From contig DASVPR010000037.1 in NCBI GenBank assembly GCA_036389485.1, positions 22,972 to 86,971 of the forward strand: a stretch of 64,000 nucleotides of DNA, written 5' to 3'. Every line of letters begins with the position of its first letter. Within the stretch, counting starts at the first letter, position 1. Positions 18,806-46,068 of this stretch are shown piece by piece. Origin of the DNA: Solirubrobacteraceae bacterium (GTDB lineage Bacteria > Actinomycetota > Thermoleophilia > Solirubrobacterales > Solirubrobacteraceae). The translations under genes were made by a program, and so were the position numbers. The notes beneath the pieces were generated by a model, which was not told the DNA's origin, did no database searches, and worked only from the letters and a program-made list of their open reading frames with translations.

Positions 18806-21800
18806 TCAGCAGGGCGAGAGCGCGCCGGCGAGCTTGCGCCGCGCGCTCCGCAGGTACGACGCGGCCTCGCCCGGCGTGAGCCGAAGCCGCTCGGCGATCG
18901 CGCGCGCATCGAGGCCGTCATCGGCGAGGCTTGCGACCCGGCGCTCCGGCTCGGTGAGCTCGTCGGCCGCGGCGGGCGCGGCGCCCACGGCGGCGAGCTG
19001 CCGGGCGCACCGCGCGGCGAGGCCCTGCGCGCCGCAGATCCCCGCGAGGGTGAGCGCGGCGCCGAGCGTCCGAGGCGCGGCGTCGACGTCGCGCGCGTCC
19101 GCCTGCGCGGCGCCGAGCGCGGCCAGCGCCTTCGCCCTCTCGAGCCGCGACCGCGAGCGCTCCAGCGTCTCCACCGCGCGCTCGAGCAGCGCGATGTCGC
19201 CGTCGATCTCGCCGAGCGTCCGCAGCGCCCGACCGACCGCCGCGGGCGCGCCCCACGCCTCCGCGAGTGACAGGCCCCGAAGCGCCGCCGCTCGCGCCGC
19301 CTCGAAGCCGTCGCGCGAGGCGGCGCGGCCGGCGCGCTCGCCCGTCCGCGCGGCGTCCCTCGCCGCCACGCCCGCGAGCGCGCGGGCGAGCAGGTCGTTG
19401 ACGGGGATCCATGCGGGGTTTCCCTCGGTCCCGGCGAGCTGCGCGATCCGCTCGGCGGTGGCGAGCGCGTCGTGCGGGCGATCCTCGGCAAGCGCGCGCT
19501 CGGTCTCGGCGCAGAGGAGCAGGAGGTGGCCCTGGCTGCCCTCGGGCGCCTGCTGCGCGGTGCGCGCCACTTCACGGGCGGCTTCGACGTCGCCGCGCTC
19601 GACGAGCGTCGAGGCGAGCAGCGCGATCGGGAAGACGGAGATCACGCCGCCGGATCCCCAGAGCGCGAGCTCGTTGAGGCTCTCGCGCAGCGAGCGCTCG
19701 GCGTCCTCGAGGTCGCCGCGCGCGAGCAGCTCGTAGCCGCGCCAGATGTGCGCGGTCGAGGTGAGCAGGAGCGAGCCGCGGCGGTAGGCCGCGTCGAGGA
19801 CGGCGTCCCACTCGCGGAGCGCCTCCGGGCGGTCGGCCGTGGTCAGGGTGATGAACGTGCCGGGGAGGAGCAGGCCGTCGTCGACCTCGGCGAGCGTCCC
19901 GCCCGAGAGCGACCGCAGCGCGAGCTCGGCGCACGGGCCCGCCTCGCGCCCGGCGAACGCCCAGCCCCACGCGACGATCGACTCGAGCATCCGCACGCCG
20001 GGGCCGTCGCCCTCGGGCAGCCCGTCCTGCTCGTAGCGCGCGAGGCGCTCCGCGATCTGCGCGGGCTCCCCGACGCCGCCGCGGATGAGCGTCATGAGCT
20101 CGTACGCCTCGAGGCCGAGCATCGCGTCGCGCTGATCGGCGGGCGTCTCGCGGCGGGCGGTGCGCACGAACGCGAGCAGCTCGGTGGGCGTGCCGGCGAA
20201 GAAGAGCGTCGAGGCGAGCGCGAGCGCCGCGGCCGCCCGGGCCGCCGGGTCCGTCAGCGCCTCGTACGCGGCGGCGAGGTGCTCGGCGGCCGACGCGCCG
20301 TCGACGAGCTGCTCCGCGAGCCCCAGCTCGAGCAGGACCCCGGCGCGCTCCTCCTCCGGCGGCGGCTCGGCGAGCGCGCGGCGCAGGAACGCCGCGGCGC
20401 TGTCGGGCGCGCCCTTGCGCGCGGCGCCGGAGCCCGCGCGGCGCAGGGTCGCGGCGGCGTCCGCATCGCCGCCCGGCGGCGCCTTCGCGAGCTGCAGCGC
20501 GATCTGCTCCGGCTCCGCGCCCGCCGCCGCGAGGACCTTCGCCGCGCGGGCGTGCTGCAGCTCGCGCTCGCCGACGGAGACGCCGTAGTAGACGGCGTCG
20601 CGGACGAGCGGGTGGACGAAGCGCAGAGGGGCGGCGCGGGCGGCGTCGCGGCTCGGGATGGCATCGCCGCGGAGGATCTCCGCGCGGGAGAGCGCCGCGA
20701 CCGCGCGGCCGGCGGCGCCGAGTTCCAGCCCGGCGAGCTCGGCCACCGCCGACAGCCCGGCGCCCTCGCCGAGGATCGACAGCGCGCGGGCGGCGGCGAC
20801 GGCCTCGTCCGGCATCCGCGCGAGCCGGAGCCCGATCGTGCGCGACAGGGCGCGCGGGCCGATCTCCTCGACGCGCACCGCGTGCTCGTCGCGCGGCTCG
20901 ACGCCCTCGCTCTCGAGTGCCGCGAGCAGCTGGTGCAGCAGCAGAGGGTTGCCGCCGGTGGTCGCGTGGCAGGCCGCGCAGAACGCGTCGCCGGCAGCGG
21001 CGCCGAGCCGGGCACGGACGACGTCCGCGGCCGCCGCGTCCGACAGCGGCGCGGGCCGGATCGCGACGGTCGCCGGATCGTGGACGACCTCGTCGAGCAG
21101 CGCGGCATCGGTCGGCTGCTCGCCGCTCCGCAGCGTCGCGAGCACGAGCACGGGCAGGCCCTCGAGCCGGCGGACGAGGTACGCGAGCAGCCGCAGCGAC
21201 GGCCGGTCGCACCAGTGGACGTCGTCGACCGCGAGGACGAGCGGCCGGTCGGCCGACAGGTGCACGATCGACCAGTAGAGGCCGTGCAGGACGGCGAACG
21301 ACGTGTCCGCCGCGAGCTCCCCCTCCCCCGGCCGCCCGAAGACCGCGCTCGCGGGCGCCGCCGCCCCGGCGAGCACGGCGTCCCGGCGAGCCGGATCGGC
21401 CAGCTCGACCTCGAGCAGCTGCCGGACGACGCCGAAGGGGAAATCGCGCTCGTGCTCGCTCGCCCGGGCGTTCAGAACTCGGGCGCCCGCCGCGGTCGCG
21501 CGGCGACGCGCCTCGTCGAGCAGTCGCGTCTTCCCGAGCCCCGCCGGCCCCTCGATCAGCGCGACGCGGCCGGGTTCGAGCGCGTCGAGGGCGTCGAGCT
21601 CCCGCTCCCGCTCGACGAGCTCGGGGCCGAGCGTGGCGCGAAGTGGAGGGGCTGCGGCGGGCAGCGGCGAGCCTCCCACTTCGCGCAGCAGCGCCTCGCG
21701 GAGGGCGACGACCTCCCAGGAGGGGGACGCGCCGAGCTCCTCGCCGAGCAGCTCGCGGAGATCGTCGAAGGCGCGGAGGGCCTCCGCCGGGTTCCCCTCG

Positions 21801-22432
21801 GCGCGCAACGCCTCGATGAGGCGGGCCCAGCACGACTCGCGGAACGGGGCGAGCTCGACGGCGGTGCGAGCGGCGGCGACGGCTTCGCTCGCGGCCTCTC
21901 CGCCGAGGGCGGCGCCCGCCTGGGCCGCCAGCTCGAGCGCCTCGACGCGCAGCTCGGCCAGCTCCGCCCGGCGCTCGGCGATCCACGGGGCCTCGTCGCC
22001 GGGGAGCAGGCCGCGCGCGGCGATCTCCTCGGCCCGGCCGGCGGCTTCGAGGCACGCGCCCCATGCGGAACGGCCGGCGGCGGCGCGCGCGGCGTCGATC
22101 GCGGCGCCGACCTCCTCCCAGTCGACGACGGTCCCCTCGGGAAGACGCAGCGTCAGGTCGCGACGACCCTCGAGCGCGTCCGCGCCGAGCGCCTTGCGCA
22201 GGCGCGACAGCAGCGGCGAGAGCAGCTCGTCCGCGCGGGCGGGCGCGCCCTCCCCCGGCCACACCGCGCCGACGAGCTCGTCCCGCCGGACGGGGCGCCG
22301 GCGATGCAGGACGAGGAAGGCGAAGAGGAGCCGCGACTGGCGGCGGGTGAACGCGTCGTCGAGCCGCTCGCCCCGCCACACGACGGCGAGCCTTCCGCAC
22401 AGCTCGATGCGTGACTCGGATTCAGCGATCAC
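18806..22432 (-). CDS. large regulator: N-terminal SARP (OmpR-type wHTH + BTAD), P-loop ATPase, helical repeats, C-terminal LuxR-type HTH
   Basis: The N-terminal region (RIELCGRLAVVWRGERL...) and the ...PFRESCWARLIEALRAEGNPAEALRAFDDLRELL segment look BTAD-like. The Walker A motif is GPAGLGKT. The C-terminal segment LTEPERRVASLADDGLDARAIAERLRLTPGEAASYLRSARRKL resembles a LuxR_C HTH. Confidence 0.75.
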   Translation of the reverse strand: MIAESESRIELCGRLAVVWRGERLDDAFTRRQSRLLFAFLVLHRRRPVRRDELVGAVWPGEGAPARADELLSPLLSRLRKALGADALEGRRDLTLRLPEGTVVDWEEVGAAIDAARAAAGRSAWGACLEAAGRAEEIAARGLLPGDEAPWIAERRAELAELRVEALELAAQAGAALGGEAASEAVAAARTAVELAPFRESCWARLIEALRAEGNPAEALRAFDDLRELLGEELGASPSWEVVALREALLREVGGSPLPAAAPPLRATLGPELVERERELDALDALEPGRVALIEGPAGLGKTRLLDEARRRATAAGARVLNARASEHERDFPFGVVRQLLEVELADPARRDAVLAGAAAPASAVFGRPGEGELAADTSFAVLHGLYWSIVHLSADRPLVLAVDDVHWCDRPSLRLLAYLVRRLEGLPVLVLATLRSGEQPTDAALLDEVVHDPATVAIRPAPLSDAAAADVVRARLGAAAGDAFCAACHATTGGNPLLLHQLLAALESEGVEPRDEHAVRVEEIGPRALSRTIGLRLARMPDEAVAAARALSILGEGAGLSAVAELAGLELGAAGRAVAALSRAEILRGDAIPSRDAARAAPLRFVHPLVRDAVYYGVSVGERELQHARAAKVLAAAGAEPEQIALQLAKAPPGGDADAAATLRRAGSGAARKGAPDSAAAFLRRALAEPPPEEERAGVLLELGLAEQLVDGASAAEHLAAAYEALTDPAARAAAALALASTLFFAGTPTELLAFVRTARRETPADQRDAMLGLEAYELMTLIRGGVGEPAQIAERLARYEQDGLPEGDGPGVRMLESIVAWGWAFAGREAGPCAELALRSLSGGTLAEVDDGLLLPGTFITLTTADRPEALREWDAVLDAAYRRGSLLLTSTAHIWRGYELLARGDLEDAERSLRESLNELALWGSGGVISVFPIALLASTLVERGDVEAAREVARTAQQAPEGSQGHLLLLCAETERALAEDRPHDALATAERIAQLAGTEGNPAWIPVNDLLARALAGVAARDAARTGERAGRAASRDGFEAARAAALRGLSLAEAWGAPAAVGRALRTLGEIDGDIALLERAVETLERSRSRLERAKALAALGAAQADARDVDAAPRTLGAALTLAGICGAQGLAARCARQLAAVGAAPAAADELTEPERRVASLADDGLDARAIAERLRLTPGEAASYLRSARRKLAGALSPC

Positions 22433-22462: not shown

Positions 22463-25405
22463 ATGACGCAGACGGCGCAGACGCTGGTCGGTCGCGACGG
22501 CGAGGTCGAGGTCCTCGAACGGCTCCTCGACGCCGCCCGCGCCGGGGAGCCGCGCTTCGTCGCCGTGAGCGGCGAGCCCGGGATCGGCAAGTCGTCGGTC
22601 TTGGCCGAGCTGGCGCGCCGCGCGCGGGACGCCGGCTGCCTCGTGCTCGAGGGCCGCGCCACCGAGCTGGAGCGCGAGCTGCCGTTCGGCCCGGTCGTCG
22701 ACGCGCTCGACGCCCACCTCGACGCCCTCGACGCCCGCTCGTTCGACCGCCTCGCGGTCGACGTGCTCGCCGAGCTGACCGCGGTGTTCCCCTCGCTTCG
22801 CACGCTGACCCCCGACGCGGCGCCGCTCACCACCGCCGCCGAGCGGTTCCGCGCGCACCGCGCCGTGCGCGACGTCGTCGAGCGGCTCGCCGGCGCGCAG
22901 CCCGTCGTCCTCCTGCTCGACGACCTGCACTGGAGCGACGGCGCGTCGCTGGAGCTCGTCGCCCACCTGCTCCGCCGCCCACCCGAGGCCGCGGTCCTCG
23001 TCGCGCTCTCCTACCGCGCCGGCCAGGCGCCGAAGGAGCTGCACCGCGCGCTCGCGGGAGCGGCGGCGCCGGTCGAGGAGCTGGCGCTCGGGCCGCTCGC
23101 CGTGGAGGACGCGGAGCGGCTGCTGGCGGAGGAGCCGCGAGGAGGGGGCGGCGCGGAGGCGCGCGTGGCGGGCGGCGACGGCGCGACGGGCGACGGTCGC
23201 CGCCCGGGGGCGGGCCGCGCGGCCGAGTTGCACCGGGCGAGCGGCGGCAATCCGTTCTACCTGCTCCAACTCGCGCGGCGAGGCGCGCAGGATCCCTCCG
23301 CGCCGCCGCCGGCGGTCGCCGCCGCGATCGCGGAGGAGCTCGACGGGCTGGCGCCGCGTGTACGGGCGTTCGCGCAGGCCGCGGCGGTGGCGGGCGACCC
23401 GTTCGACCTCGAGGTCGCGGTCGCGACCGCCGCGACGCCGGAGGCCGAGGCCCTCGACGCGCTCGACGAGCTGCTGGCGCGGGACATGGTGCGCGCCACC
23501 GAGGTCCCGCGGCGGTTCCGCTTCCGCCATCCGCTCGTCCGGACCGCGATCTACGCGTCGTGCACCGCGGGCCGGCGGATCGTGATGCACGAGCGGGCGG
23601 GCGCGGCGCTCGCGGCTCGCGGCGCCCCCGCGCCCGCGCGCGCCCACCACGTCGAGCAGGCCGCGCGCCACGGGGACACCGCCGCGGTCGACGTCCTGCG
23701 CGAGGCCGGGCTGGCGGTCGCGAGCCGCGCCCCGGCGAGCGCCGCGCGCTGGTTCGACGCCGCGGTCCGCATCCTGCCCGCCTCCGCGCCGGCGCACGAG
23801 CGCATCGGCCTCCTCGCCGGGCTCGCCTCCACCCGCTCGGCGACCGGCCGCTTCGAGGACGCCCGCGACGCGCTCGACGAGGCGGCCGGGCTGATGGACG
23901 CGGGCGCCGCGCGCGCGCCGCTGGTCTCCGCGTGCGCGGTCATCGAGCTGCTCCTCGGCCGTCGCGAGGAGTCGCGCGGCCGGCTGCTCGCCGAGCTGGA
24001 CGCCCTGCCGCACGACGACGCGGCCGCCGCGGCGCGCCTGACGATGGACCTCTCGCTGACCGAGTTCTACGCGACCGACTACGAGGCCTCGCGCCAGTGG
24101 GCAGCGCGCGCGCTCGAGACCGCCCGCACCACCGCGGATCGCCCGCTCCTCGCGGGAGCGCTCTCGATGCTCGCGCTCGCCGAGTCCTCGACCGGACCCG
24201 CGTCCGACGCCACCGCCCACTGCGACGAGGCCGCGGCGCTCGTCGACGCGATGCCGGACGGCGAGCTGGTCGCGACCATGGACGGCGTCGCCCACCTGTG
24301 CGGCGCCGAGTACTGCGTCGACCGCTTCGAGGCGGCGGAGCGCCACGCCCGTCGGGGCCTGGAGCTCGCGCGCACGAGCGGGCGCGGCGAGCTGTTCCCC
24401 GGGATGTCGCAGTCGCTGGCCGGCGCGCTCTTCTCGACCGGCCGGCTCGCCGACGCGCAGCTCGTGCTCGACGAGGTCGTCGAGGCCGCCCGCCTCACCG
24501 ACAACGCGATCACGCTCTCGTGGGGACTGCTGAACCGCGCGTACGTCGCGGTCGCGCGCGGGCAGGTGGACCTCGCGCTGCGCGAGGCCGAGGAGGCCGT
24601 CGCGCTCACGCGCGGGATGGAGCGCGGCGTCATGGCGGCGTGGGCGGGCGGCGTCCACGGCGCGGCGCTCGTCGAGGCCGGCGAGCCGGAGCGCGCGGCG
24701 GCCACGCTCGTTCGGTCCGGCGGCGGCGAGGCGCTGCCGCTCATCCCCGGCGGCTTCCGCGCGAACTTCCTCGAGATCCTCACGCAGGCGTGGCTCGGCT
24801 GCGACCGGCGCGAGGAGGCCGGGCGGGCGGCCGAGGCCGCGCAGGAGCGCGCGGCGCGGTTCGGCCTCCGCCTCGCGGGCGCCGTCGCCGAGCGCGCCGC
24901 CGCCGCGGTCGCCTTCCAGTACGGCGACGCCGCCGAGGCGGCCGAGCGGGCGCTCGCGTCGGCCGAGGGCTGTGACGCGGTCGGCGCGCGCATGGAGAGC
25001 GCGATCTCGCGGACGCTCGCCGGCCGCGCGCTGCTGAAGGCGGGCCGTACCGGCGACGCGGTGACCGAGCTGGAGCGGGCGGCGGCCGACCTCGAGGCCT
25101 GCGGAGCGCGGCGCCACCGCGACCGCGCCGAGCGCGAGCTGCGCCGGCTCGGCCGCGGCGTGCACCGGCGCACCCGGCGCGGCAACCTCGACGACCGCGG
25201 CGTCGCCTCCCTCACCGGCCGCGAGCTCGAGATCGCCCGCCTCGTCGTCGACCGCCGCACGAACCCCGAGATCGCCGCCGAGCTGTTCCTCAGCATCAAG
25301 ACCGTCGAGACGCACCTGCGCAACATCTTCCGCAAGCTGGGGGCGGATTCGCGGGTCGAGGTCGCGAGGATCGTGGAGCGGGCGGAGGCGGCCGGGGCCC
25401 CCTGA
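22463..25405 (+). CDS. LAL-type regulator (large ATP-binding LuxR family)
   Basis: The Walker A motif is GEPGIGKS. The middle of the protein is helical and TPR-like. The C-terminal segment LTGRELEIARLVVDRRTNPEIAAELFLSIKTVETHLRNIFRKLG is a LuxR-type HTH. Confidence 0.8.
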   Translation: MTQTAQTLVGRDGEVEVLERLLDAARAGEPRFVAVSGEPGIGKSSVLAELARRARDAGCLVLEGRATELERELPFGPVVDALDAHLDALDARSFDRLAVDVLAELTAVFPSLRTLTPDAAPLTTAAERFRAHRAVRDVVERLAGAQPVVLLLDDLHWSDGASLELVAHLLRRPPEAAVLVALSYRAGQAPKELHRALAGAAAPVEELALGPLAVEDAERLLAEEPRGGGGAEARVAGGDGATGDGRRPGAGRAAELHRASGGNPFYLLQLARRGAQDPSAPPPAVAAAIAEELDGLAPRVRAFAQAAAVAGDPFDLEVAVATAATPEAEALDALDELLARDMVRATEVPRRFRFRHPLVRTAIYASCTAGRRIVMHERAGAALAARGAPAPARAHHVEQAARHGDTAAVDVLREAGLAVASRAPASAARWFDAAVRILPASAPAHERIGLLAGLASTRSATGRFEDARDALDEAAGLMDAGAARAPLVSACAVIELLLGRREESRGRLLAELDALPHDDAAAAARLTMDLSLTEFYATDYEASRQWAARALETARTTADRPLLAGALSMLALAESSTGPASDATAHCDEAAALVDAMPDGELVATMDGVAHLCGAEYCVDRFEAAERHARRGLELARTSGRGELFPGMSQSLAGALFSTGRLADAQLVLDEVVEAARLTDNAITLSWGLLNRAYVAVARGQVDLALREAEEAVALTRGMERGVMAAWAGGVHGAALVEAGEPERAAATLVRSGGGEALPLIPGGFRANFLEILTQAWLGCDRREEAGRAAEAAQERAARFGLRLAGAVAERAAAAVAFQYGDAAEAAERALASAEGCDAVGARMESAISRTLAGRALLKAGRTGDAVTELERAAADLEACGARRHRDRAERELRRLGRGVHRRTRRGNLDDRGVASLTGRELEIARLVVDRRTNPEIAAELFLSIKTVETHLRNIFRKLGADSRVEVARIVERAEAAGAP

Positions 25406-25459: not shown

Positions 25460-26350
25460 ATGACCGCGACGACCACCCTTCTCCCTCCCTCCCACGACGC
25501 CACCGCCGCCCTCCCCGGCGGGCGCACGCTCGGCTACGGCGTCTACGGCGCCGACGACGGCCCACTCGTCGTCGTCCTCGACGGCCCGGGCTCCCGCGGG
25601 CTCGGTCGCGCCCTGGCCGCCGCGGCGGAGGAGCTCGGGCTCACCCTCCTCGTACCGGACCGGCCGGGCTTCGGCGCGTCCACCCCCACGCCGGGCCGCA
25701 CGATCCCGCAGGTCGCGGGCGACCTCCTCCGCCTCGTCGACACCCTCGGCTTCGAGCGCTTCGGCGTCGTCGCTCAGTCGGGCGGCACGCCGTACGCGCT
25801 CTCGCTCTCCGCCCTCGCCGGCGAGCGCGTCACGGGCCTCTCGCTCGTCGGGGGGATCGTGCCGCTCGGCGAGCGCAAGGCGCTGGAGGACGTGAGCGGG
25901 CCGATGAAGCCCGTGTTCCTCCTCGCCCGCCGGGCGCCCTGGCTGCTGGGGCCGATCTTCAAGTCGGTCGCGCGCAAGACGCTGAAGGACCCCGAGACGG
26001 CGGCGCGCAAGTACGCCGGAGGCGTCCCGCCGCTGGACCGCGAGGTGCTGGAGGACCCGCGCATGTGGGCGATCCACGCGACGACGTCGGCGGAGGCCGT
26101 CATGTCCCCGGACGCGTTCGTGCGCGAGGCGCGCATGCTCGCGAAGCCGTGGGGCGTCGAGCCGAAGGACGTGGGAGCGCCGGTCGAGCTCTGGGTCGGC
26201 GAGCGCGACGTCACGCACCCGCCGGTCATGAGCCGCAAGCTGGCCGAGCGCTTCGGCGGTGCGCCCGTCACCGTGGTCCCCGGCGCCGGGACGTTCGCGA
26301 TGATCTCCGTCTACCCCGACGTGCTCACGCACGCCGCCGCGCTCGGCTAG
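25460..26350 (+). CDS. alpha/beta-fold hydrolase
   Basis: It has an oxyanion-region motif (VVLDGPGSRG) and a nucleophile elbow (AQSGG). Its length is typical of the family. Confidence 0.7.
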   Translation: MTATTTLLPPSHDATAALPGGRTLGYGVYGADDGPLVVVLDGPGSRGLGRALAAAAEELGLTLLVPDRPGFGASTPTPGRTIPQVAGDLLRLVDTLGFERFGVVAQSGGTPYALSLSALAGERVTGLSLVGGIVPLGERKALEDVSGPMKPVFLLARRAPWLLGPIFKSVARKTLKDPETAARKYAGGVPPLDREVLEDPRMWAIHATTSAEAVMSPDAFVREARMLAKPWGVEPKDVGAPVELWVGERDVTHPPVMSRKLAERFGGAPVTVVPGAGTFAMISVYPDVLTHAAALG

Positions 26351-29079
26351 CGGCAGACGGTGTCGATGCCGGGCGAGGTCCGCTCCGCGTTCGGCCCGGA
26401 CTTCGCCTCGGGGGCGAGGACGGGCGCCGCCGACGCCGCCTGCTCCGCGGCCCCGCGCAGCAGGCGCCAGCGGCCACCGATGCGCGCGTCGAGCCGGAGC
26501 TCCTCGCCCGCGCCGATGCGCACGCCGCTGAAGGTCGCCTCCACGGGCCGGCGGCCGACGAGGCACGACGCGTAGACGTCGATCCTCGCCGCGGCCTCGG
26601 AGCGCACCCGCCAGCCGTCGAAGCTCACCACGTCCGCGGCGCGCCGGACCGCGATCGGCCGCGCCGCGCCGCGCGTCGCCGGCTCGCGCGGCGTCAGCAC
26701 GCGCAGCGGCGGGCCGTCGAACGCGTCCAGCCCCTTCGCGACCCAGCTCGTCAGCCCGGGCTGATGGCACGCGACCACGTACGCGCCCTGGGACTGCGGG
26801 TGCTGCCACTCGCCGCACTCGTCGATCGCCCGCTCGATGCGCCCGGCGTTGCCGGCGATCCGATTCGCGACGTCCGCGCCCAGCGGCTCTTCGCCCTCGG
26901 CGGGCAGCGGCTCCGGCGACTCGACCGCGTCGCACGGCCGCGCCTTGCCGTCGTAGTCCTGCTGCCACAGCGGGCTCCGCGGCCCGTTGGCCTCGTACAG
27001 CTCGAACTCCAGGCGCGACTCGCCGAGACGCGTGTGCCCGAAGCGCCCAGCCCAGCACGCCCAGCGTGCCTGCGCGAGGTTCTGCACCGGCACCTGCGTG
27101 GGCTCGAGCACGATCTGGCGCGTCGTCCGGCACTCCGGCCGGTCGTTGATCAGCCCGAACGGCGCCCTCCGGCGCCGCTGCTCGAGGCAGGACTCGTAGC
27201 TGGCGTGGCTGCCGCGGGCGACGTGCACGTCGACGTGGGACCCGTTGCGCGCCAGGGCCGGCTCGTCCCACAGGAACGGCTCGCCGCCGTCGTGCCGCGC
27301 CATCCAGAGCGCGACGGGCGTGCGCGTCGCCGAGAGCACCACCCCGACGTGCTCGAAGTCGCCCTCGTGGTAGCCGGCGCGGCCGACGGGGATCTCGGCC
27401 GCCGCGAGCGGCTGGTAGTTGAACGTGTAGAAGAACCAGTACTGCAGGGACGCGATCTGGCCGGCCCCCGGGTCCGAGAGCAGGAAGTACTCGCGCGCCG
27501 TGCGGTAGGGATCGCTGCTCCCCAGGGCCTGGACCATCTGGTTGTGCTGATGGTCGGCCTTGTCGAAGTCGCCGGGGTAGTCGAGCCATTCGGTCTCGCC
27601 GCCGCGATACGGGAGGTCCCCGGCCGACAGCACGGGCACGCACGGCGGCCGGCGGCAGAGCGACTTCCCGCGCTGCTTCAGGTCGAAGATCGTCAGGAGC
27701 GACACCGGCCAGAAGCCGTCGTTCGACGACACGTGCAGCCGCGGCTGGAAGCGCTGGGCCAGCCGGCGCTCGGGCGTCAGCAGCTGCGACGCGGGCGTCG
27801 TGGCCGCCTTGCACGGGTCGCGCCCGCCGGGGTCGCGCGGCGGCCGCGGCGGGACGGAGGTGGCCGCGGCGCCGCCCTGCGTCAGGGGCTCGCGGTTGAG
27901 CGCGAGCTCGTCGCGCAGTGTGAGCGCCCTGTCCTGCGCGTCCATGACCGGCTCGAGCGGGCCGATCGCCGACGCGACGAGCCGGTCGGTGGGGGCCCAC
28001 AGCAGCCGGCCGCTGTCGTTCGCCAGCTCGCGTCCCTGGGCAGTCCCGCGGAGGTCGATGCGCGCGTAGTAGAGGCGCCCGTCGTTCTCGCCGACGTACA
28101 GGCCGCAGACCGGATGGGCGTCGTTGGTGCGCAGCAGCGCGACCCCCTGGGCCTGCGGGTCCTCGAGCGCGCGCGCGAAGTTGAACGCCGCGCCGAAGAG
28201 CACGATCGTCAAGAAGACGGTCACCCCGTACCAGCGGAACTGGTTGCCGGTCACGTGCGCGATCGCCAGGTTGACCAGCCCGAGCGCGAGCGCGATCCCG
28301 GCGACGCCCGCCACCCACTTGCTCTCCCGGCCGACGGCGACGAACGCGAATGCTCCGACGCCGACGGCGGTGGCGACGATCCCCCACGAGCGGGCGGGGC
28401 CCTTCGCCGTCCCGGCGACCGAGAGCGCCGCGCCGGCGAGCACGAGGACCAGCCCGAGGGCGTAGGCGTCGCGCTCGGGGTCGACGACCGCGAGGGCGAC
28501 GACCGACGCCACCAGGACGACGATCCCGGCCCACAGGCGGAGCCGTCTGACCTCGAGCACGCCCGTGAAGAAGACGGCACGCGCACGGTCGCCGAGCGCG
28601 CCTAGAGGATTCACCGGATGGTCGCGGTTCCAGTACGCCGCCTGCTCGAGCAGCACCGCGATCGCGACGAGGGCGGCCAGCGCGAGTGCCGACAGCGGCA
28701 CCCACTCGCGAGGCTCCCAGTCCTCGACCACGAACGCCGCGGTGACCTCGAGGAGGATCACGACGAGCAGCCCGCGCCGGGTGCGCAGGCTCGCCGTCCC
28801 GCCGCTGTCGAGCAGACGCAGCACCAGCACCGAGACGAGCCCGCCCAGCACGAACAGCACGAGCGCGATCGCGCCGGCGGTCACGAGATCGCGCCGCGAC
28901 TGCACGGCGACCGCCTGGTCGGCCGGGAGCTGCGCGGCCTCGAACCGGCTCCAGAGGATCACGCCGCCGACGAACGCGACGAAGCCGACCGCGACGACGG
29001 CGGCGGCGAGCGCGGCGGCGAACCGCAGGGCGAGCTCTACGAGCTTGTCGGCGGTGCCCCCTGCCTCCCCGGCCTCCAC
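26347..29079 (-). CDS. polytopic membrane protein with an extracytoplasmic Vps62/DUF946-like domain
   Basis: The first ~330 aa are strongly hydrophobic and contain many TM helices. Further along are FQPRLHVSSNDGFWPVSL, LQYWFFYTFNY, GYHEGDFEHVGVVL and HVARGSHASY, which match the pattern of the Vps62 family. Confidence 0.6.
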   Translation of the reverse strand: MEAGEAGGTADKLVELALRFAAALAAAVVAVGFVAFVGGVILWSRFEAAQLPADQAVAVQSRRDLVTAGAIALVLFVLGGLVSVLVLRLLDSGGTASLRTRRGLLVVILLEVTAAFVVEDWEPREWVPLSALALAALVAIAVLLEQAAYWNRDHPVNPLGALGDRARAVFFTGVLEVRRLRLWAGIVVLVASVVALAVVDPERDAYALGLVLVLAGAALSVAGTAKGPARSWGIVATAVGVGAFAFVAVGRESKWVAGVAGIALALGLVNLAIAHVTGNQFRWYGVTVFLTIVLFGAAFNFARALEDPQAQGVALLRTNDAHPVCGLYVGENDGRLYYARIDLRGTAQGRELANDSGRLLWAPTDRLVASAIGPLEPVMDAQDRALTLRDELALNREPLTQGGAAATSVPPRPPRDPGGRDPCKAATTPASQLLTPERRLAQRFQPRLHVSSNDGFWPVSLLTIFDLKQRGKSLCRRPPCVPVLSAGDLPYRGGETEWLDYPGDFDKADHQHNQMVQALGSSDPYRTAREYFLLSDPGAGQIASLQYWFFYTFNYQPLAAAEIPVGRAGYHEGDFEHVGVVLSATRTPVALWMARHDGGEPFLWDEPALARNGSHVDVHVARGSHASYESCLEQRRRRAPFGLINDRPECRTTRQIVLEPTQVPVQNLAQARWACWAGRFGHTRLGESRLEFELYEANGPRSPLWQQDYDGKARPCDAVESPEPLPAEGEEPLGADVANRIAGNAGRIERAIDECGEWQHPQSQGAYVVACHQPGLTSWVAKGLDAFDGPPLRVLTPREPATRGAARPIAVRRAADVVSFDGWRVRSEAAARIDVYASCLVGRRPVEATFSGVRIGAGEELRLDARIGGRWRLLRGAAEQAASAAPVLAPEAKSGPNAERTSPGIDTVCR

Positions 29080-40545: not shown

Positions 40546-41235
40546 GTGCGGGTCGTGCACGTCGAGCACCCGGACGGCCGCGGCCCCGGCGTGTTCGGCG
40601 AGGGCGCCGAGGTCGTGAGGTGGCGCGCGTTCGAAGACCCGCCGCCGACCGGGCCCGTCGACGCGATCGTGCTCTACGGCGCCTCGACGAACATCGTCGA
40701 TGCGCCGGACTGGCTCGCCGTGGAGATGGGGTGGCTGCGCGAGCGGCTGGAGACAGGGACGCCCGTCCTCGGCGTCTGCTTCGGCGCGCAGGTCCTCGCG
40801 CACGCGCTCGGCGCCGAGGTCGCGCGCGCCCGCGAGCCGGAGATCGGGTGGCTGCCGGTGACGCTCACGGCCGCCGGCCGCGCCGATCCCGTGCTCGGCG
40901 CGCTCCCCGAGCGGTTCCTCGCCTGCCAGTGGCACTCGTGGGCGTGCGCGGTGCCCGAGGGCGGGATCGCGCTCGCCGAGTCGCCGGTGTGCCTCCAGGC
41001 GTTCCACGCCGGCAGCGCCTGGGGCGTCCAGTTCCACCCCGAGGTCGACGACGAGACGCTGTCGACGTGGATCGACACCTACCGCAACGACCCGGACGCC
41101 GTGCGACTCGGCTTCGACCCCGCGCTGGCCCACGCCGCCCGCGAGCAGAACCTCCCACGCTGGAACGAGCTCGGCCGGCGGCTGTTCAGGGCGTTCCTGC
41201 GCGCCGCGCCGCGAGCGACGACGCGACGATCATGA
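40546..41235 (+). CDS. class-I glutamine amidotransferase-like protein (GATase1)
   Basis: It has a nucleophile elbow (GVCFGAQVLA) and a His/Glu motif (GVQFHPE). The start is GTG, 3 nt after potC. Confidence 0.7.
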   Translation: MRVVHVEHPDGRGPGVFGEGAEVVRWRAFEDPPPTGPVDAIVLYGASTNIVDAPDWLAVEMGWLRERLETGTPVLGVCFGAQVLAHALGAEVARAREPEIGWLPVTLTAAGRADPVLGALPERFLACQWHSWACAVPEGGIALAESPVCLQAFHAGSAWGVQFHPEVDDETLSTWIDTYRNDPDAVRLGFDPALAHAAREQNLPRWNELGRRLFRAFLRAAPRATTRRS

Positions 41236-41401
41236 AGAGGAAGACCGGCACGTACCACCAGTCGCGACCGAGCATCGACGCGACGAGCCCGACGACGCCG
41301 GCGGCGGCCCCGACGACGTAGGCGGTGCGGTGGTGGCGGCGGGGCAGGAGCGGGAAGCGGCCTTGCGGCCGCTCCCCCTCCGGACCGTGGGCTCCGCTCA
41401 A
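41186..41401 (-). CDS. 71-aa two-TM membrane protein; candidate Rhs immunity protein
   Basis: The TTG start overlaps the Rhs TGA (TTGA at 41398-41401). About 90% of codons end in G or C. It has two hydrophobic helices (AYVVGAAAGVVGLVASML and WWYVPVFLFMIVASSLAA). Its 3' end overlaps the convergent GATase1 tail by 50 nt. Confidence 0.5.
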   Translation of the reverse strand: MSGAHGPEGERPQGRFPLLPRRHHRTAYVVGAAAGVVGLVASMLGRDWWYVPVFLFMIVASSLAARRAGTP

Positions 41402-44400
41402 CGGTGCCGCCTCCGCCGGCTGCGGCGGCGGCTGCGACCCGTGCGCTCACCGGCGCGCTCGCCGGTGCCCTCGCCGCTGTCCTCGTCGCTCTCCTCCGAC
41501 TCCTCCTCGTCATCGTCCTCGGACTCGTCCTGGAGCTTGTTGCCGATCATCCCGGTCGTGCCCGCGAGGGCCGCTCCGCAGCCGACGGCGCCGACCCCGG
41601 TCTCCGCCGTGGCGCAGATCAGGCCCGTCCCCACCACGGCGCCGCCCACCTCCAGGGCGTCGAACACGTCGAACATCCCCGTCGGGTCCGTGCGGTTGAC
41701 CGGATCGCCGCCGCCGTAGAGGTACGGGTTGCCGCCCCGGAGATCGTCGGCCCGGTCGACCGGGTCAAGCTGCGTCCACCGCATGAGCGACGGATCGTAG
41801 TAGCGCTGACCGAAGTGGTACAGGCCGCCCACGGACCGGTAGCCGCCCGCGAACCCGAACTGGCCGTTCGCGACGTCGGCGGCGCCCGTGGTCGCTCCCC
41901 ACTGCCCCGCGGCGCGCGGTGCGGGCGTGCCGTACGGCTCGTAGTCGTAGCGCTCGGCGACGGCGCCCGTCGAGTCGGTCAGCCCGGTCACGGAGCCGAT
42001 CGCGTCGAACAGGTAGTAGTGCCGCGTCGCGCCCGACCGCCGGGACACGAGCCCGCCGCCGTCGTCGTACGTGAAGTACGTCGTCCCGCGCGCGCCGATG
42101 CCCAGCACGTTGTGCTGGAAGCTGCTCGCGCCCTCCGTGATCCAGCGGTCCTGGCCCTCGCCCAGGTAGACCATGTTCGTCGGCGAGCCCGAGATCGTCA
42201 GGTTCGTCGTCTGGTCGAGCAGGTTGTAGGTCCCGGAGCGGCCGGGGCTCGTGAGCTCGTTGCCGTTCTTGTCGTAGGTGAACGCGGGTGTCGTCGCCGG
42301 GCACGCCGGCGGCGTGCTGATCGTCGTCCCCGCCTGCTTCGCGCACAGCTCGTTGAACGAGTTGTAGCCGTAGTCGGTGATCGCGTTGGGTGCCTGGCTG
42401 CCCGTGACGCTGGTCTTGACCACGTTCCCGGCCGCGTCGAGGTTGTAGTCGTAGCCGGCGAGCGTCGCGTTCGTCGTCCACGTGCCCGTCGACGACTTGA
42501 TGATCGCCGTGTCGAGACGGTCGAGCGCGTCGTACGTGTACCGCGTCGTCAGCCCGAGCTTGCCGTCGATCTTCTCGAAGATCATCGGCGTCTCGCGCGA
42601 CGTCACCGGGTCCTTGTAGGCGTAGTTGAACTTCTGCAGCGTCGCCGCCGCGCTGTTCTTCGCGTGGATCTCCGACAGGCGGAACGCGGGGTCGTAGATC
42701 TGGTCGATCGTCACCCCGTTGGGGTACGTCGTCTTCGTCCGCTGCCCCTCCTTGGAGTGCTCGAACTTCGTCGGCTTGGCCACGCCCGGGTCGTACACGG
42801 CACGGACCTCGTTGACCGCGTTGTACGTGTACTCGACCTTGCCTCCGGCATCCGTCAGCGACCGAAGGTTGCCGACGGCGTCGTAGGTGTACGTGTTGGA
42901 GCCGCCGCCGGGCAGGCTCTCAGTCAGGACGCGGTTGAGCTGGTCGTAGGTCATCGAGCGCGTGCGCAGCGTGCCCGTGCCCTGCTCCCGCGTGTCCTCC
43001 TGCGTCAGGTTCCCGTCGCGGTCGTACGTGTACTGGACGTACGGCTCGGTGGCGCCGAGCACCTGGTCCGCCCCGGTGAACTCCACCTTCTTGAGCCGGT
43101 CGAGGCTGTCGTAGGTCAGGATCCGCCAGTTGTCCTTGCCGTCCTGGACCTTGTCGACGCGGGCCAGGGTCTGGTTGTAGGTCAGCCGCGTCGGGCCGGT
43201 CGGGTTCGGCGTCCCCGGGTTCGGCGGGGTGATCAGGTTGACGTTGCCCTTGGCGTCGTAGCCGTAGCTCGTCGCGTTGCCGCGCGGGTCGGTGATGCCG
43301 GTCAGCTGCCCCTTCTTGCCGTCGATGGACGACGTCGTCGGGGCGTAGCTCATGCTCACGCCGGCGAGCAGCGTCCCGCTGTTGCTCGTCTGCCGCACGC
43401 TGTACGGGTTGCCGTTCGTATCGGTCGCGCCGGTGTCCTGCCAGCCGAACTCGGTCCGCCCGCCCTGGGCGTTCGTCGCGCGGCCCGGCAGGTACTTCGA
43501 CCCGGCGACGCCCGACGGCACGCCGGTGTAGCCGGCGGGAGCGGAGTCGCACGGCTGCGTGTCCACGCCGCCGAAGTCCGCGCACCCGCGGATGCTGCCG
43601 GCGGCGACGGGTGTGTCCGTCTTCGTCGGGTTGTCGTCGGAGTCGTAGGTGAGCGACGTGTTCGGCGTCGTGCCGGTGTTCGACGCCGCGGTGTAGCTCT
43701 CGACGTTGGAGTTGCTCGTGAACTTCCGGCTGGTCTCGCGGCCGAGCGCGTCGATCGTCTTCGTGACGCGGCCCTGCTCGTCGAAGACGTACCGGGTGAC
43801 GCGGTCGTTCTCGTCCCCGGTCGCCGTGCCGATCGGGTCGGTGACCTTGGTCTCGCCGGAGCCGTCGCGGCGCAGGTCGTACTCGAACGTGGTCGTCGGG
43901 CCGGTCATGTTCACCGTGTCCGTGACCCGCGTGACGGTCTGGACCTTGCTCGCGTACTCGTGCCCGTAGGGGTAGTAGTCGATCAGGGTGATGTCGCCCT
44001 GTGGGGTCGTGATCTTGGTGAGCTCCCCGTTGGGCCCGTCGTACTGGTAGAGCGTCTTGAAGCTCGCGCCGTTCTGCGGGTCCGTGTAGCTGTCCATGAA
44101 CGGCCCGGTGTACGCGTACGAGTGCACGCGGCCGGCCGGGTCGGTCATCGAGCTGATGTACGAGCCGGTGTACGCGAAGCGGACGTCGTCGGCCGTCGTC
44201 GCCGTGTCGTTGTTCGAGTCCTCGATGCGCAGCAGGTTGCCGCTCGTCGCGTCGTAGACGAAGCTGAGCTTGCGCCCGTTGCGATCCTCGATCTCGTACA
44301 TCCGCCCGTTCTTCGTGTAGTTCTCGAAGCGGTACTTCGTCTGGGTCTTGTGGTCGGTCAGCTGCCACTTGCCGGCGGCCGGGACATCCTTCTGCAGGGT

Positions 44401-46068
44401 GTTGTTGAACCCGGGCGGGGTCTTGTAGCTGCCGTCGGGCTGGCGGTCGTAGATCCCCTTCGCGCCGCTCGGGAAGACGAGCCGCATGAAGGCGCCGCCG
44501 GCGTTCTGCTCGAGCTGGAGGTCCGGACCGGTGTCCACCTGCCAGTCGGCCATCGAGTCGAGCGTGTCGTCCAGGCTGTTGTAGCTGCGGGTCACGCTGA
44601 CGGCCGGCCCGAGCCCGCCCGGCATCGAGAAGTCCTTGTTCTGGACCAGCAGGTTGCCGGAGTTCACGTTGACGCCCAGCGTCATCCGGTCGGTGAGGCG
44701 CTGGTCCTCGTAGATCCAGCCGCGGCGCTTGCCGATGCGCTCCTTGATGACGACGTTGAGGTACGGCTTGTGGGAGAGGGACTCGTTGCTGTCCAGCCAC
44801 GTCCCGTTGGTGCCGGACGGGAGGCTGAGCACCATGCCGTGGTTCGCACGCTTGCCCGAGACCCACTCCCGGACGATCTTGAGCATCGTCCAGTAGTTCT
44901 CGCCGCTGATCCCGCCCGCGCCGCCGGGGAACTCGGCCCGCGCGGTGGTGTCGCCCTCGCCGCCCGGCTCCGACCACCGGTCGGTGCCGTTGTTGCGGTT
45001 CCAGCTCGCGGCGCTGGTGAACGGCTCGGTCAGCGGATCCACCTGGATGTCGGCCCAGGTCAGGGTCTGGTCGTTGGTCTGCCACGCGACCAGCGTCGCT
45101 CCGGCGACGTCGACGCCCCGCGGGATCCCGGCCAGCGGGAACCGCATGACGATGTGGTGGTCGTGCCCGCCCACCATGCCGACCTTCATCGGGTTGGCGG
45201 CGCAGAAGCTCGAGTCCGGCAGGCTGGCGTCGAGGTAGCAGTCGCCGTCGGGGTTCGGCGTCGTCACCGGGTCGACCGTCACCGGCCAGGCCCGCCCCGG
45301 CTTGTCCAGCCACGCGTCGCTCAGGCCGTACGTCAGTCGCCAGCCGTCCGCGGTCTTCGCGACTCGCGCCTTCACCGCCGCGGTCCGGCGCTTCGCGTCG
45401 ACCATGAACGGTGCGCTGACGGTCAGCCGGCTCCGCCCGAGCTTGTCGCGCAGCGCGACGGCACCGGTGCGGAGGACCTCGGGGTGCAGCCCGGGCGTCA
45501 TCGAGAGATCGAAGGAGAAGTCACGCGTGGAGCCCGGGCCGCGCAGCACGAGGTCCTCCTTGACCGCGCCGAGCTGCGTGCGGTAGACGACGTCGACGCC
45601 GGGCAGCGCGCCGGGGTAGCGCGCGGTCGCGCCGCGCGCCTCGGCGGCGGCGCTCGCGCCGCGAAGGTCGAATGCCAGCCACCACCGCCCCTTGCGGACG
45701 CGGACCGTGTCGTCGCCGAGCCGCAACGGCAAGCTGGTCGAGAAGCTGTTGCGGCGGTTCAGGAGCCGGCCGTGCAGCTCCTGCAGCCGCGTGTCGATGT
45801 CGCGCCAGCGCCCGGCCGCGTCCCGGTAGTGGACCGGCGAGGTGTAGAGGCGCGCGACCTTCTCGCCGTCGCGGCCGACGAACGTCTTCGATGTCCGCGT
45901 CCTCAGGCGGACGACTTCATGACCGACGCGCAGCTCGCGCTTCAGCGTGGCCCGGGCCGCAGCAGCAGCCGCCTTTGCGTGGCCGGGGCGAGGCTTCGCG
46001 GCGAGCGCGAGCGGCGCGACGAGGGCGGTGCAGAGCAGCGCAGCGAAGACGAAGATCGATCGGCGCAC
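41398..46068 (-). CDS. Sec-exported Rhs/YD-repeat polymorphic-toxin-type protein (1556 aa)
   Basis: GTG at 46068 is preceded by a perfect AAGGAGG Shine-Dalgarno with 5-nt spacing. It has a signal peptide (MRRSIFVFAALLCTALVAPLALA) and dozens of YD repeats (YTYDAVGN, YGYDAKGN, YTYDRDGN...). The core ends in GLYHFGQRYYDPSLMRWTQLDP...GGDPVNRTDPTGM. Confidence 0.9.
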   Translation of the reverse strand: MRRSIFVFAALLCTALVAPLALAAKPRPGHAKAAAAAARATLKRELRVGHEVVRLRTRTSKTFVGRDGEKVARLYTSPVHYRDAAGRWRDIDTRLQELHGRLLNRRNSFSTSLPLRLGDDTVRVRKGRWWLAFDLRGASAAAEARGATARYPGALPGVDVVYRTQLGAVKEDLVLRGPGSTRDFSFDLSMTPGLHPEVLRTGAVALRDKLGRSRLTVSAPFMVDAKRRTAAVKARVAKTADGWRLTYGLSDAWLDKPGRAWPVTVDPVTTPNPDGDCYLDASLPDSSFCAANPMKVGMVGGHDHHIVMRFPLAGIPRGVDVAGATLVAWQTNDQTLTWADIQVDPLTEPFTSAASWNRNNGTDRWSEPGGEGDTTARAEFPGGAGGISGENYWTMLKIVREWVSGKRANHGMVLSLPSGTNGTWLDSNESLSHKPYLNVVIKERIGKRRGWIYEDQRLTDRMTLGVNVNSGNLLVQNKDFSMPGGLGPAVSVTRSYNSLDDTLDSMADWQVDTGPDLQLEQNAGGAFMRLVFPSGAKGIYDRQPDGSYKTPPGFNNTLQKDVPAAGKWQLTDHKTQTKYRFENYTKNGRMYEIEDRNGRKLSFVYDATSGNLLRIEDSNNDTATTADDVRFAYTGSYISSMTDPAGRVHSYAYTGPFMDSYTDPQNGASFKTLYQYDGPNGELTKITTPQGDITLIDYYPYGHEYASKVQTVTRVTDTVNMTGPTTTFEYDLRRDGSGETKVTDPIGTATGDENDRVTRYVFDEQGRVTKTIDALGRETSRKFTSNSNVESYTAASNTGTTPNTSLTYDSDDNPTKTDTPVAAGSIRGCADFGGVDTQPCDSAPAGYTGVPSGVAGSKYLPGRATNAQGGRTEFGWQDTGATDTNGNPYSVRQTSNSGTLLAGVSMSYAPTTSSIDGKKGQLTGITDPRGNATSYGYDAKGNVNLITPPNPGTPNPTGPTRLTYNQTLARVDKVQDGKDNWRILTYDSLDRLKKVEFTGADQVLGATEPYVQYTYDRDGNLTQEDTREQGTGTLRTRSMTYDQLNRVLTESLPGGGSNTYTYDAVGNLRSLTDAGGKVEYTYNAVNEVRAVYDPGVAKPTKFEHSKEGQRTKTTYPNGVTIDQIYDPAFRLSEIHAKNSAAATLQKFNYAYKDPVTSRETPMIFEKIDGKLGLTTRYTYDALDRLDTAIIKSSTGTWTTNATLAGYDYNLDAAGNVVKTSVTGSQAPNAITDYGYNSFNELCAKQAGTTISTPPACPATTPAFTYDKNGNELTSPGRSGTYNLLDQTTNLTISGSPTNMVYLGEGQDRWITEGASSFQHNVLGIGARGTTYFTYDDGGGLVSRRSGATRHYYLFDAIGSVTGLTDSTGAVAERYDYEPYGTPAPRAAGQWGATTGAADVANGQFGFAGGYRSVGGLYHFGQRYYDPSLMRWTQLDPVDRADDLRGGNPYLYGGGDPVNRTDPTGMFDVFDALEVGGAVVGTGLICATAETGVGAVGCGAALAGTTGMIGNKLQDESEDDDEEESEESDEDSGEGTGERAGERTGRSRRRSRRRRHR

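Follow-up and report, generated by a model that had tools for sequence, protein, structure and literature searches.

Described membrane-acting toxins and the window locus

Tse5 (PA2684) of Pseudomonas aeruginosa is an Rhs protein whose pore-forming C-terminal region is countered by the membrane protein Tsi5, for which two transmembrane (TM) regions are predicted (PMC9637101); the structure of Tse5 has been described (PMC10684867). It is the closest functional precedent for the locus analysed here, which lies in a stretch of 64,000 nucleotides of contig DASVPR010000037.1 (henceforth the window, with a GC content of 73.7%). The locus consists of an Rhs/YD-repeat polymorphic toxin gene and of an open reading frame (ORF) of 71 amino acids (aa), ORF71, that overlaps its stop codon. 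Judging from gene order and from the kinship of both partners across lineages, we think it quite likely that ORF71 is the cognate immunity protein of a membrane-acting cargo at the C-terminus of this Rhs, against which it would protect. The module comprises the following features.

41398..46068 (-): Rhs/YD-repeat polymorphic toxin gene; 1556 aa, with signal peptide, DNRLRE, DUF6531, RHS repeats and Rhs core
41674..41904 (-): Rhs-associated core, ending ...GGDPVNRTDPTGM; residues 1389-1465; match to TIGR03696 Rhs_assc_core (E = 5e-16) that ends at residue 1465
41524..41673 (-): core of the C-terminal cargo, FDVFDALEVGGAVVGTGLICATAETGVGAVGCGAALAGTTGMIGNKLQDE; residues 1466-1515; predicted hydrophobic helical hairpin of ~50 aa, rich in Gly, Ala, Ser and Thr, with two invariant Cys
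41401..41523 (-): charged tail of the cargo; residues 1516-1556 (41 aa); ~20 acidic residues, then the basic run RSRRRSRRRRHR
41186..41401 (-): ORF71, 71 aa; putative immunity protein for the Rhs cargo; its TTG start overlaps the TGA of the Rhs gene
41410..41414 (-): Shine-Dalgarno-like GGAGG, 8 nt 5' of the ORF71 TTG, inside the Rhs Arg codons CGG-AGG-CGG
41327..41353 (-): PL[LI]PRR[HY]HR, the most conserved motif of the small proteins in the family alignments; residues 17-25 of ORF71, before helix 1, predicted to be cytoplasmic
41270..41323 (-): hydrophobic helix 1 of ORF71, AYVVGAAAGVVGLVASML; residues 27-44, from hydropathy and AlphaFold2
41207..41260 (-): hydrophobic helix 2 of ORF71, WWYVPVFLFMIVASSLAA; residues 48-65, from hydropathy and AlphaFold2; a short GRD(WW) loop separates the two helices

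Like Tse5, the window protein would hold a non-enzymatic, hydrophobic and membrane-inserting cargo in an Rhs shell. ORF71 is comparable to Tsi5, as the latter is described, in being encoded directly downstream of the toxin and in having two predicted TM regions, and depolarisation would be the expected effect of the toxin. The delivery differs. Tse5 has a PAAR-like N-terminus and is delivered with VgrG4 by a type VI secretion system (T6SS), whereas in the window Rhs a presumed Sec-type signal peptide is followed by a DNRLRE domain, and these PAAR and T6SS features are lacking; no T6SS-type Pfam family occurs in the ~25-kb list of called genes around it (~10 kb on each side). The C-terminal toxin of Tse5, at ~150 aa, is also three times larger than the ~50-aa core of the window cargo with its two conserved Cys, and a PDB sequence search with the final 400 residues of the window protein did not return Tse5.

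The toxic C-terminus of CdiA from EC93, CdiA-CT(EC93), dissipates the membrane potential, and a small, very hydrophobic, membrane-localised immunity protein, CdiI, is encoded directly downstream (PMC11630599; listed as Imm-CdiI in PMC3482391). CdiA-CT/CdiI pairs are highly polymorphic, as are the polymorphic toxin-immunity pairs considered here. However, CdiA-CT(EC93) depends on CdiB/CdiA two-partner secretion in Gram-negatives, follows a VENN boundary, forms five-helix bundles and has a separate entry domain, and neither it nor CdiI has any sequence relationship to the window pair. Immunity proteins with two TM helices (Imm17, Imm-CdiI) and a two-helix pore-former borne by Rhs proteins, Tox-WTIP, have been described, Imm17 from Bacteroidetes, Firmicutes, Fusobacteria and Spirochaetes and Tox-WTIP from Proteobacteria (PMC3482391). 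Imm17 has Trp and Arg in the region connecting its helices (PMC3482391), where ORF71 has GRDWW. Yet the Trp and Arg of this loop vary across the family of small proteins, which does not keep the WxW/R signature, and Imm17 was not recovered in Pfam scans taken up to E = 1 for ORF71 and up to E = 10 for its homologues. Tox-WTIP resembles the window cargo as a small, two-helix, hydrophobic toxin domain on Rhs proteins with Sec-type export (through the type II secretion system; PMC3482391), but the cargo has neither the RxxR of the first Tox-WTIP helix nor the Wx[ST]IP of the second, and it has no Pfam match.

Glycine-zipper toxins of type VII secretion systems (T7SS) offer a further comparison. 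TspA/TsaI, TelE/TipE and EsxX/ExiAB+ExiCD are Gram-positive systems in which the toxin C-terminus depolarises the membrane from outside and membrane immunity proteins are encoded downstream (PMC7456083, PMC10434224, PMC12744356). They also show tandem immunity paralogues, as known for the membrane immunity gene tsaI (PMC9484751), and in nearly all cases the protein that neutralises a channel-forming effector is a membrane protein (PMC12744356). These toxins differ from the window cargo in their LXG/T7SS delivery, in their true extended glycine zipper and in their immunity proteins, which are either polytopic (5-6 TM) or soluble (DUF5085). Class II (unmodified) bacteriocins combine a membrane-active peptide of ~50 aa, rich in Gly and Ala and often with a Cys pair, with an adjacent gene for a small membrane immunity protein. 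They are ribosomal peptides with a double-glycine leader, whereas the tips described here are cargo at the C-terminus of larger proteins, such as the Rhs of 1556 aa or the secreted protein of 259 aa. No bacteriocin family was found in the Pfam and NCBIfam scans of the window proteins, the homologues or the cargo.

The small gene beside homologous toxin tips in four lineages

We searched for homologues of ORF71 exhaustively with phmmer among 1.84 billion cluster representatives and with a profile among 5.8 billion proteins. The former gave P0002 (68 aa, E = 1.4e-4) and P0003 (58 aa, E = 6.1e-4) as sole homologues, and the profile made of these three sequences added P0004 (69 aa, E = 2.7e-6). 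A word-indexed search with ORF71 returned only the query itself. The homologues were found without reference to their genomic context, which we inspected only after the sequence searches. In each case the small gene follows a carrier with a tip homologous to that of the window. P0003 starts 8 nt after the stop codon of an Rhs gene whose product ends in ...DPTGQSIFGDVLETAGVVGITAITCATVESGVTAGLCVAGMTASTGSIANLSEEIGKKRKKK, on three near-identical soil contigs (L008, L009 and L010) that we count as one lineage. P0004, in loci L011 and L012 (also one lineage), overlaps by 1 nt the stop codon of an Rhs gene whose product ends in ...DPTGTSLFGDVLITVGTVGVTAIACGTAASGVTAAGCVAGLTASTGTIANLAEEVGNTRRH and has AAGGAGG upstream. 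P0002 overlaps (GTGA) the stop codon of a gene for a 259-aa protein that has a signal peptide and is not an Rhs (locus L007), ending in ...FDIFDAFVITGAVVGTGIACATAVTGVGAAGCTGALIATTGLIGKTLKDAAKP. The spacing between carrier and small gene in the four lineages is thus -4, -4, +8 and -1 nt. The three homologous tips are 39-62% identical to that of the window, with 15 invariant columns that include both Cys. The L007 carrier (552-1331, plus strand) has no Pfam domain; in it the cargo follows ...GWTYGITADPS.

A second small gene follows P0002 in tandem (L007, 1607..>1933, plus strand; MMRWPLIPRRRHRVAY..., 87 bits in a local hmmsearch), with PLIPRRRHR as its variant of the family motif. This paralogue (MMRWPLIPRRRHRVAYRVAAVACLVGLISAVIGSDDDRWSVVAFFVVMLCLVVALANREG...) has a longer C-terminal extension, runs off the end of the contig and looks like the start of an array of immunity genes.

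The small gene accompanies the tip and not the carrier. When the six-frame translations of six Rhs loci with this type of core but other tips (L002-L005, L014, L015) were searched locally with hmmsearch, none matched the small-protein profile; in L014 and L015 the shared Rhs core gives way to unrelated sequence. Over ~1350 residues, and through to the cargo, the Rhs proteins of the window and of L008 are collinear (32% identity), so shell, cargo and small gene have been kept together over deep divergence. Conversely, the small gene and the tip occur together on the non-Rhs carrier of L007, and therefore the pair moves as a cassette. The homologous loci have 64-69% GC and the small proteins are 38-48% identical, which excludes that they are assembly duplicates of one sequence. 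At the level of sequence comparison, the homology of both partners, their strict adjacency and the specific linkage of the small gene to this cargo hold in four independent lineages, and such cargo-linked synteny is the pattern expected of a cognate immunity gene. The earlier note on this DNA had proposed ORF71 as a candidate immunity protein and had named a comparative search for conserved pairs of Rhs C-termini and small ORFs as the test that could refute it. The proposal came through this test, with homologues beside homologous C-terminal regions, including on a non-Rhs carrier, and absence from Rhs loci with other tips.

A scan of genome contigs with the whole Rhs retrieved relatives from Clostridium and delta-proteobacteria that are 21-29% identical and bear other cargos, and which served as negative controls only. 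The scan of metagenome contigs with the cargo alignment was dominated by the generic Rhs-core pattern; it found L008 again, together with two Rhs loci with other cargos. Nothing was retrieved by scanning viral contigs with the small-protein alignment, nor from the PLSDB plasmids by tblastn with the cargo and with P0003. A word-indexed search with the 113-aa Rhs C-terminus (41401-41739, minus strand) returned nothing, its parent protein included, possibly owing to composition filtering. Since this search missed the parent protein, the distribution of the cargo is under-sampled and the rarity of the family should be read cautiously.

ORF71 is almost certainly a real gene. The plus strand reads tcaa at 41398-41401, i.e. 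TTGA on the minus strand, so that the TTG start (41401-41399) and the TGA stop codon of the Rhs gene (41400-41398) overlap, and this TTG is the sole canonical start ahead of helix 1. The last Rhs codons are CGG CGG AGG CGG CAC CGT TGA. The GGAGG and the first T of the TTG come from the AGG and CGT codons of this tail, which account for 2.6% and 2.9%, respectively, of the 1249 Arg codons of the window genes. Hence, the last codons of the charged tail also provide the Shine-Dalgarno sequence and the start of ORF71. Length alone is uninformative here, because 10 kb of this GC-rich DNA contain 55 ORFs of at least 40 aa. The GC contents of ORF71 at the three codon positions (GC1/GC2/GC3) are 0.75/0.58/0.90, or 0.79/0.55/0.93 outside its overlap with the next gene. 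Real genes of the window show this pattern, whereas antisense shadow ORFs have GC1 of ~0.4. With a codon-usage log-likelihood model trained on 24 confident window genes, the frame of ORF71 scores +0.43 bit per codon over its non-overlapping part, whereas none of the other five frames exceeds -0.15. Among 165-nt off-frame chunks of window genes, only 1.25% match or pass the score of ORF71, which lies at the 8th percentile of real-gene chunks (mean 0.75 ± 0.34), i.e. low-normal. No additional copy of the small gene was found in the window (local hmmsearch of six-frame translations). The start overlap and the gene-like GC3 claimed by the earlier note were thus borne out, with the upstream GGAGG as an addition. 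Its description of the ORF as unannotated has to be corrected: the 71-aa gene was already called, without any family, in a public assembly (ENA ERZ27253101, contig k141_574758).

The product would be a small inner-membrane protein with two predicted TM helices. Its hydropathy on the Kyte-Doolittle scale peaks at residues 29-43 (2.13) and 51-65 (2.29), and AlphaFold2 with a four-sequence alignment gives a helical hairpin at moderate confidence, with helices at residues 22-45 and 50-67 (a pLDDT of 67). Both lines agree with the two hydrophobic helices that had been noticed before. All small proteins share PL[IL]PRR[HY/R]HRxA followed by two hydrophobic helices, and ORF71, P0002, P0003 and P0004 fit the longer pattern M-x-R-(W/N)-...-PL[IL]PRR[HY]HR-x-A-[YHW] before the helices. 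The loop between these is variable (GRDWW in ORF71, NNYGW in P0002, NGDWW in P0003 and NRDAL in P0004). The RRHHR before helix 1 and the RR after helix 2 suggest, by the positive-inside rule, that both ends of ORF71 face the cytoplasm. The PL[IL]PRRHHR motif may fix this topology, or may contact acidic residues of the toxin. Neither ORF71 nor its homologues have a significant match in Pfam, NCBIfam, PHROG, PADLOC or PDB. DUF7439 matched ORF71 (E = 0.008, residues 17-53) and P0003 (E = 0.97) below threshold over one region, which may reflect remote kinship or composition, and DUF3040 matched ORF71 and P0004 with E ~0.1; we treated both as compositional.

The cargo comprises the 91 aa that follow the Rhs core (residues 1466-1556). 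Its core is almost entirely made of Gly, Ala, Ser, Thr, Val, Ile and Leu, so it offers no candidate catalytic residues, and the hydrophobic cores of all four cargos are devoid of Arg and Trp. The two invariant Cys (C25 and C37 of the tip alignment) lie 12 residues apart and flank a loop around ...ATAETGVG...; a disulfide between them that staples the hairpin after export is plausible. AlphaFold2 without an alignment places helices at residues 5-26 and 33-52 of a 96-aa fragment, at low confidence (pLDDT of 55). We predict that the core is a membrane-inserting toxin, whose putative target would be the membrane. No significant match to the cargo was found in Pfam, NCBIfam, PHROG, PADLOC or PDB, and its profile gave only chance matches against PDB chains (best E = 0.27). 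The charged tail of the window is an expanded form of the short acidic-then-basic ends seen in two of the three homologous tips (EEIGKKRKKK and EEVGNTRRH), the third ending in KDAAKP.

The carrier itself is an Rhs protein. PF05593 RHS_repeat matches it with E = 6e-30 in eight stretches, TIGR01643 also matches (Pfam and NCBIfam scans), and the NCBIfam DNRLRE domain NF033679 covers residues 276-439. DPxG motifs are visible in the Rhs core, which ends in DPTGM, presumably the boundary before the cargo and the site of autoproteolysis. The N-terminus resembles, by eye, a Sec-type signal peptide (VRRSIFVFAALLCTALVAPLALA/AK). The gene has a GC3 of 0.97, and AAGGAGG precedes its GTG start by 5 nt.

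Proposed function and its alternatives

These features suggest a sequence of events. The Rhs would be exported by Sec, and the cargo would then be freed from the shell by aspartyl autoproteolysis of the Rhs core. The hairpin would enter the cytoplasmic membrane of neighbours from outside, oligomerise and dissipate the membrane potential, like a bacteriocin or the Tse5-CT pore former. ORF71 would be translated by coupling to the Rhs stop codon (GGAGG-N8-TTGA) and, in the membrane of the producer, would neutralise toxin that arrives from outside or from sibling cells, either by binding it helix to helix or by keeping it from oligomerising.

Several observations weigh against this account. The best-conserved element of the small proteins is the cytoplasmic basic motif and not the helices, which is the opposite of what simple binding within the membrane predicts. 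The 14 N-terminal residues of ORF71 are absent from its homologues, and its start must therefore have shifted. No more than four independent lineages were recovered, all metagenomic and mostly on short contigs. Pairwise identities group the tips as window with L007 and L008 with L012, and they give no clear grouping of the small proteins; the two are not clearly congruent, so co-diversification is not demonstrated. The cargo matches no known pore-former, and the AlphaFold2 model of its hairpin has low confidence. The earlier note had seen a glycine zipper in it. The core does contain one GxxxG (GAVVG) and a ladder of overlapping small-xxx-small runs, but the strict patterns (G/A/S)xxxGxxxG or GxxxGxxx(G/S/T), defined as in PMC12744356, are absent from the window core; among the cores, that of L012 alone has one (GCVAGLTAS), and a further occurrence, in the charged tail of the window, is irrelevant. 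As a consequence, 'glycine zipper' is a loose label for this cargo. Finally, the proposed route presupposes a host with a single membrane; the host is probably a monoderm, high-GC soil bacterium, as weakly suggested by its GC of 74%, by sub-threshold matches to Mce-type and mycofactocin-type oxidoreductase families and by the GC content of the homologous loci.

The conservation of the basic motif would also fit a variant of the immunity function that we regard as a doubtful but arguable proposal when all its parts are taken together. The cargo would be a minimal, disulfide-stapled, bacteriocin-like hairpin, a mobile tip carried by Sec-exported Rhs and non-Rhs proteins of high-GC soil bacteria, and immunity would depend on the cytoplasmic PL[IL]PRRHHR motif and not on simple sequestration within the membrane. 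The motif might capture the acidic loop or tail of a hairpin that crosses the bilayer, or might bind a membrane factor of the host on which the toxin depends. If true, two-TM immunity proteins would gain a class with a new mechanism.

The linkage to the cargo could also have a reason other than immunity. ORF71 might be the second component of a two-peptide membrane toxin, or a helper in maturation, insertion or secretion. Adjacency and co-inheritance with the cargo speak for a functional linkage only and leave its direction open, the best-conserved cytoplasmic motif could dock another factor, and tips and small proteins do not clearly co-diversify. However, no signal or leader peptide for export is present in the small proteins, and their strongly basic N-terminus would keep them in the membrane of the producer, while the Rhs and the L007 carrier have Sec signals of their own. 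In L007 the small gene is duplicated in tandem, a trait typical of immunity genes (PMC9484751) and not of toxin subunits or chaperones. Moreover, in every one of the studied membrane-acting polymorphic toxins that we compared, the gene in this position encodes the immunity protein (PMC9637101, PMC12744356, PMC11630599). We consider this alternative improbable.

It is less probable still that ORF71 is a holin-like or pinholin-like release protein that helps the toxin to leave the producer. Class II holins are small and have a two-helix architecture, and the size of ORF71 (~70 aa), its two TM helices and its charged ends recall them. Yet none of the four small proteins has a significant PHROG match (best E of 0.03-0.7, all to families of unknown function), and there are no endolysin or phage genes among the called neighbours of ORF71. 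The carriers have Sec signals, and the comparison of L007 with the Rhs loci ties the small gene to the cargo and not to the carrier. We give next to no credit to a chance open frame in the GC-rich gap between convergent genes, which would fit the abundance of long spurious ORFs at 74% GC, the TTG start, the overlap with the next gene and a coding score at only the 8th percentile of real-gene chunks, but not a frame that is the best of six and above 98.75% of off-frame chunks, a GC1 higher than GC2 (unlike in shadow ORFs), a Shine-Dalgarno sequence and start made from rare codons, or protein homologues of ~40% identity at the same position in three other lineages; the conserved synteny effectively refutes it.

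Neighbouring genes and significance

The gene that faces ORF71 lies outside the module.

40546..41235 (+): class-I glutamine amidotransferase (GATase) gene, convergent with ORF71; 229 aa, Pfam and NCBIfam match

Its 3' end and the tail of ORF71 overlap by 50 nt (41186-41235), as the earlier note had it. That note had also taken the poor GC3 at the end of the GATase as a sign that its tail is incidental. This is reasonable: over the last 51 nt the GATase GC3 drops from 0.975 to 0.71 and its codon score from +0.68 to -0.72, and the match to the NCBIfam profile PRK07053 (glutamine amidotransferase) runs out at residue 219 of 229. ORF71 is also affected, with a GC3 down to 0.63 and a codon score of -0.09 within the overlap. 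Since neither frame is normal there and PRK07053 ends at residue 219, the overlap involves dispensable tails of both genes. An echo of this arrangement is seen in L010, where a convergent called gene of 52 aa (1082-1240, minus strand) overlaps the end of P0003 by 4 nt.

The called genes within ~10 kb on each side of Rhs and ORF71 include ABC transporters and regulators besides the GATase. Rfam and tRNA scans of the window were empty, and a terminator scan gave one match inside ORF71, which we disregarded since there were fewer matches than expected by chance. Further away in the window are three large genes with strong coding signal, at 18806-22432 (minus strand, 1208 aa), 22463-25405 (plus strand, 980 aa) and 26347-29079 (minus strand, 910 aa). 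At E = 1e-10, NCBIfam gave nothing for two of them, and the 980-aa protein matches only the TOMM kinase/cyclase fusion family, weakly and in part (82 bits against a cut-off of 706). Upstream of the carrier in L007, a gene at 89-439 (plus strand), whose product begins with MKRPLKLLLDTHAVLWWL..., resembles by eye a PIN-domain (VapC-type) toxin.

Taken as an immunity protein, ORF71 and its cargo make a new and apparently rare sequence family of toxin and immunity protein, of an established kind. A specialist would not be surprised by it, because the combination of an Rhs membrane toxin with a small membrane immunity protein is established by Tse5/Tsi5. The pair lies outside every curated protein family, and the small protein was recovered in four lineages only from ~15 billion predicted proteins searched. 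It illustrates that tiny ORFs overlapping their neighbours in GC-rich genomes can be validated through cargo-linked synteny. Few Rhs payloads are as small as this cargo. Should it prove active, it would amount to a short peptide that depolarises membranes, can be encoded genetically and comes with its own antidote of 60-70 aa, of use in work on the retention and release of hydrophobic cargo by Rhs shells and on the neutralisation of pore formers by two-helix immunity proteins.

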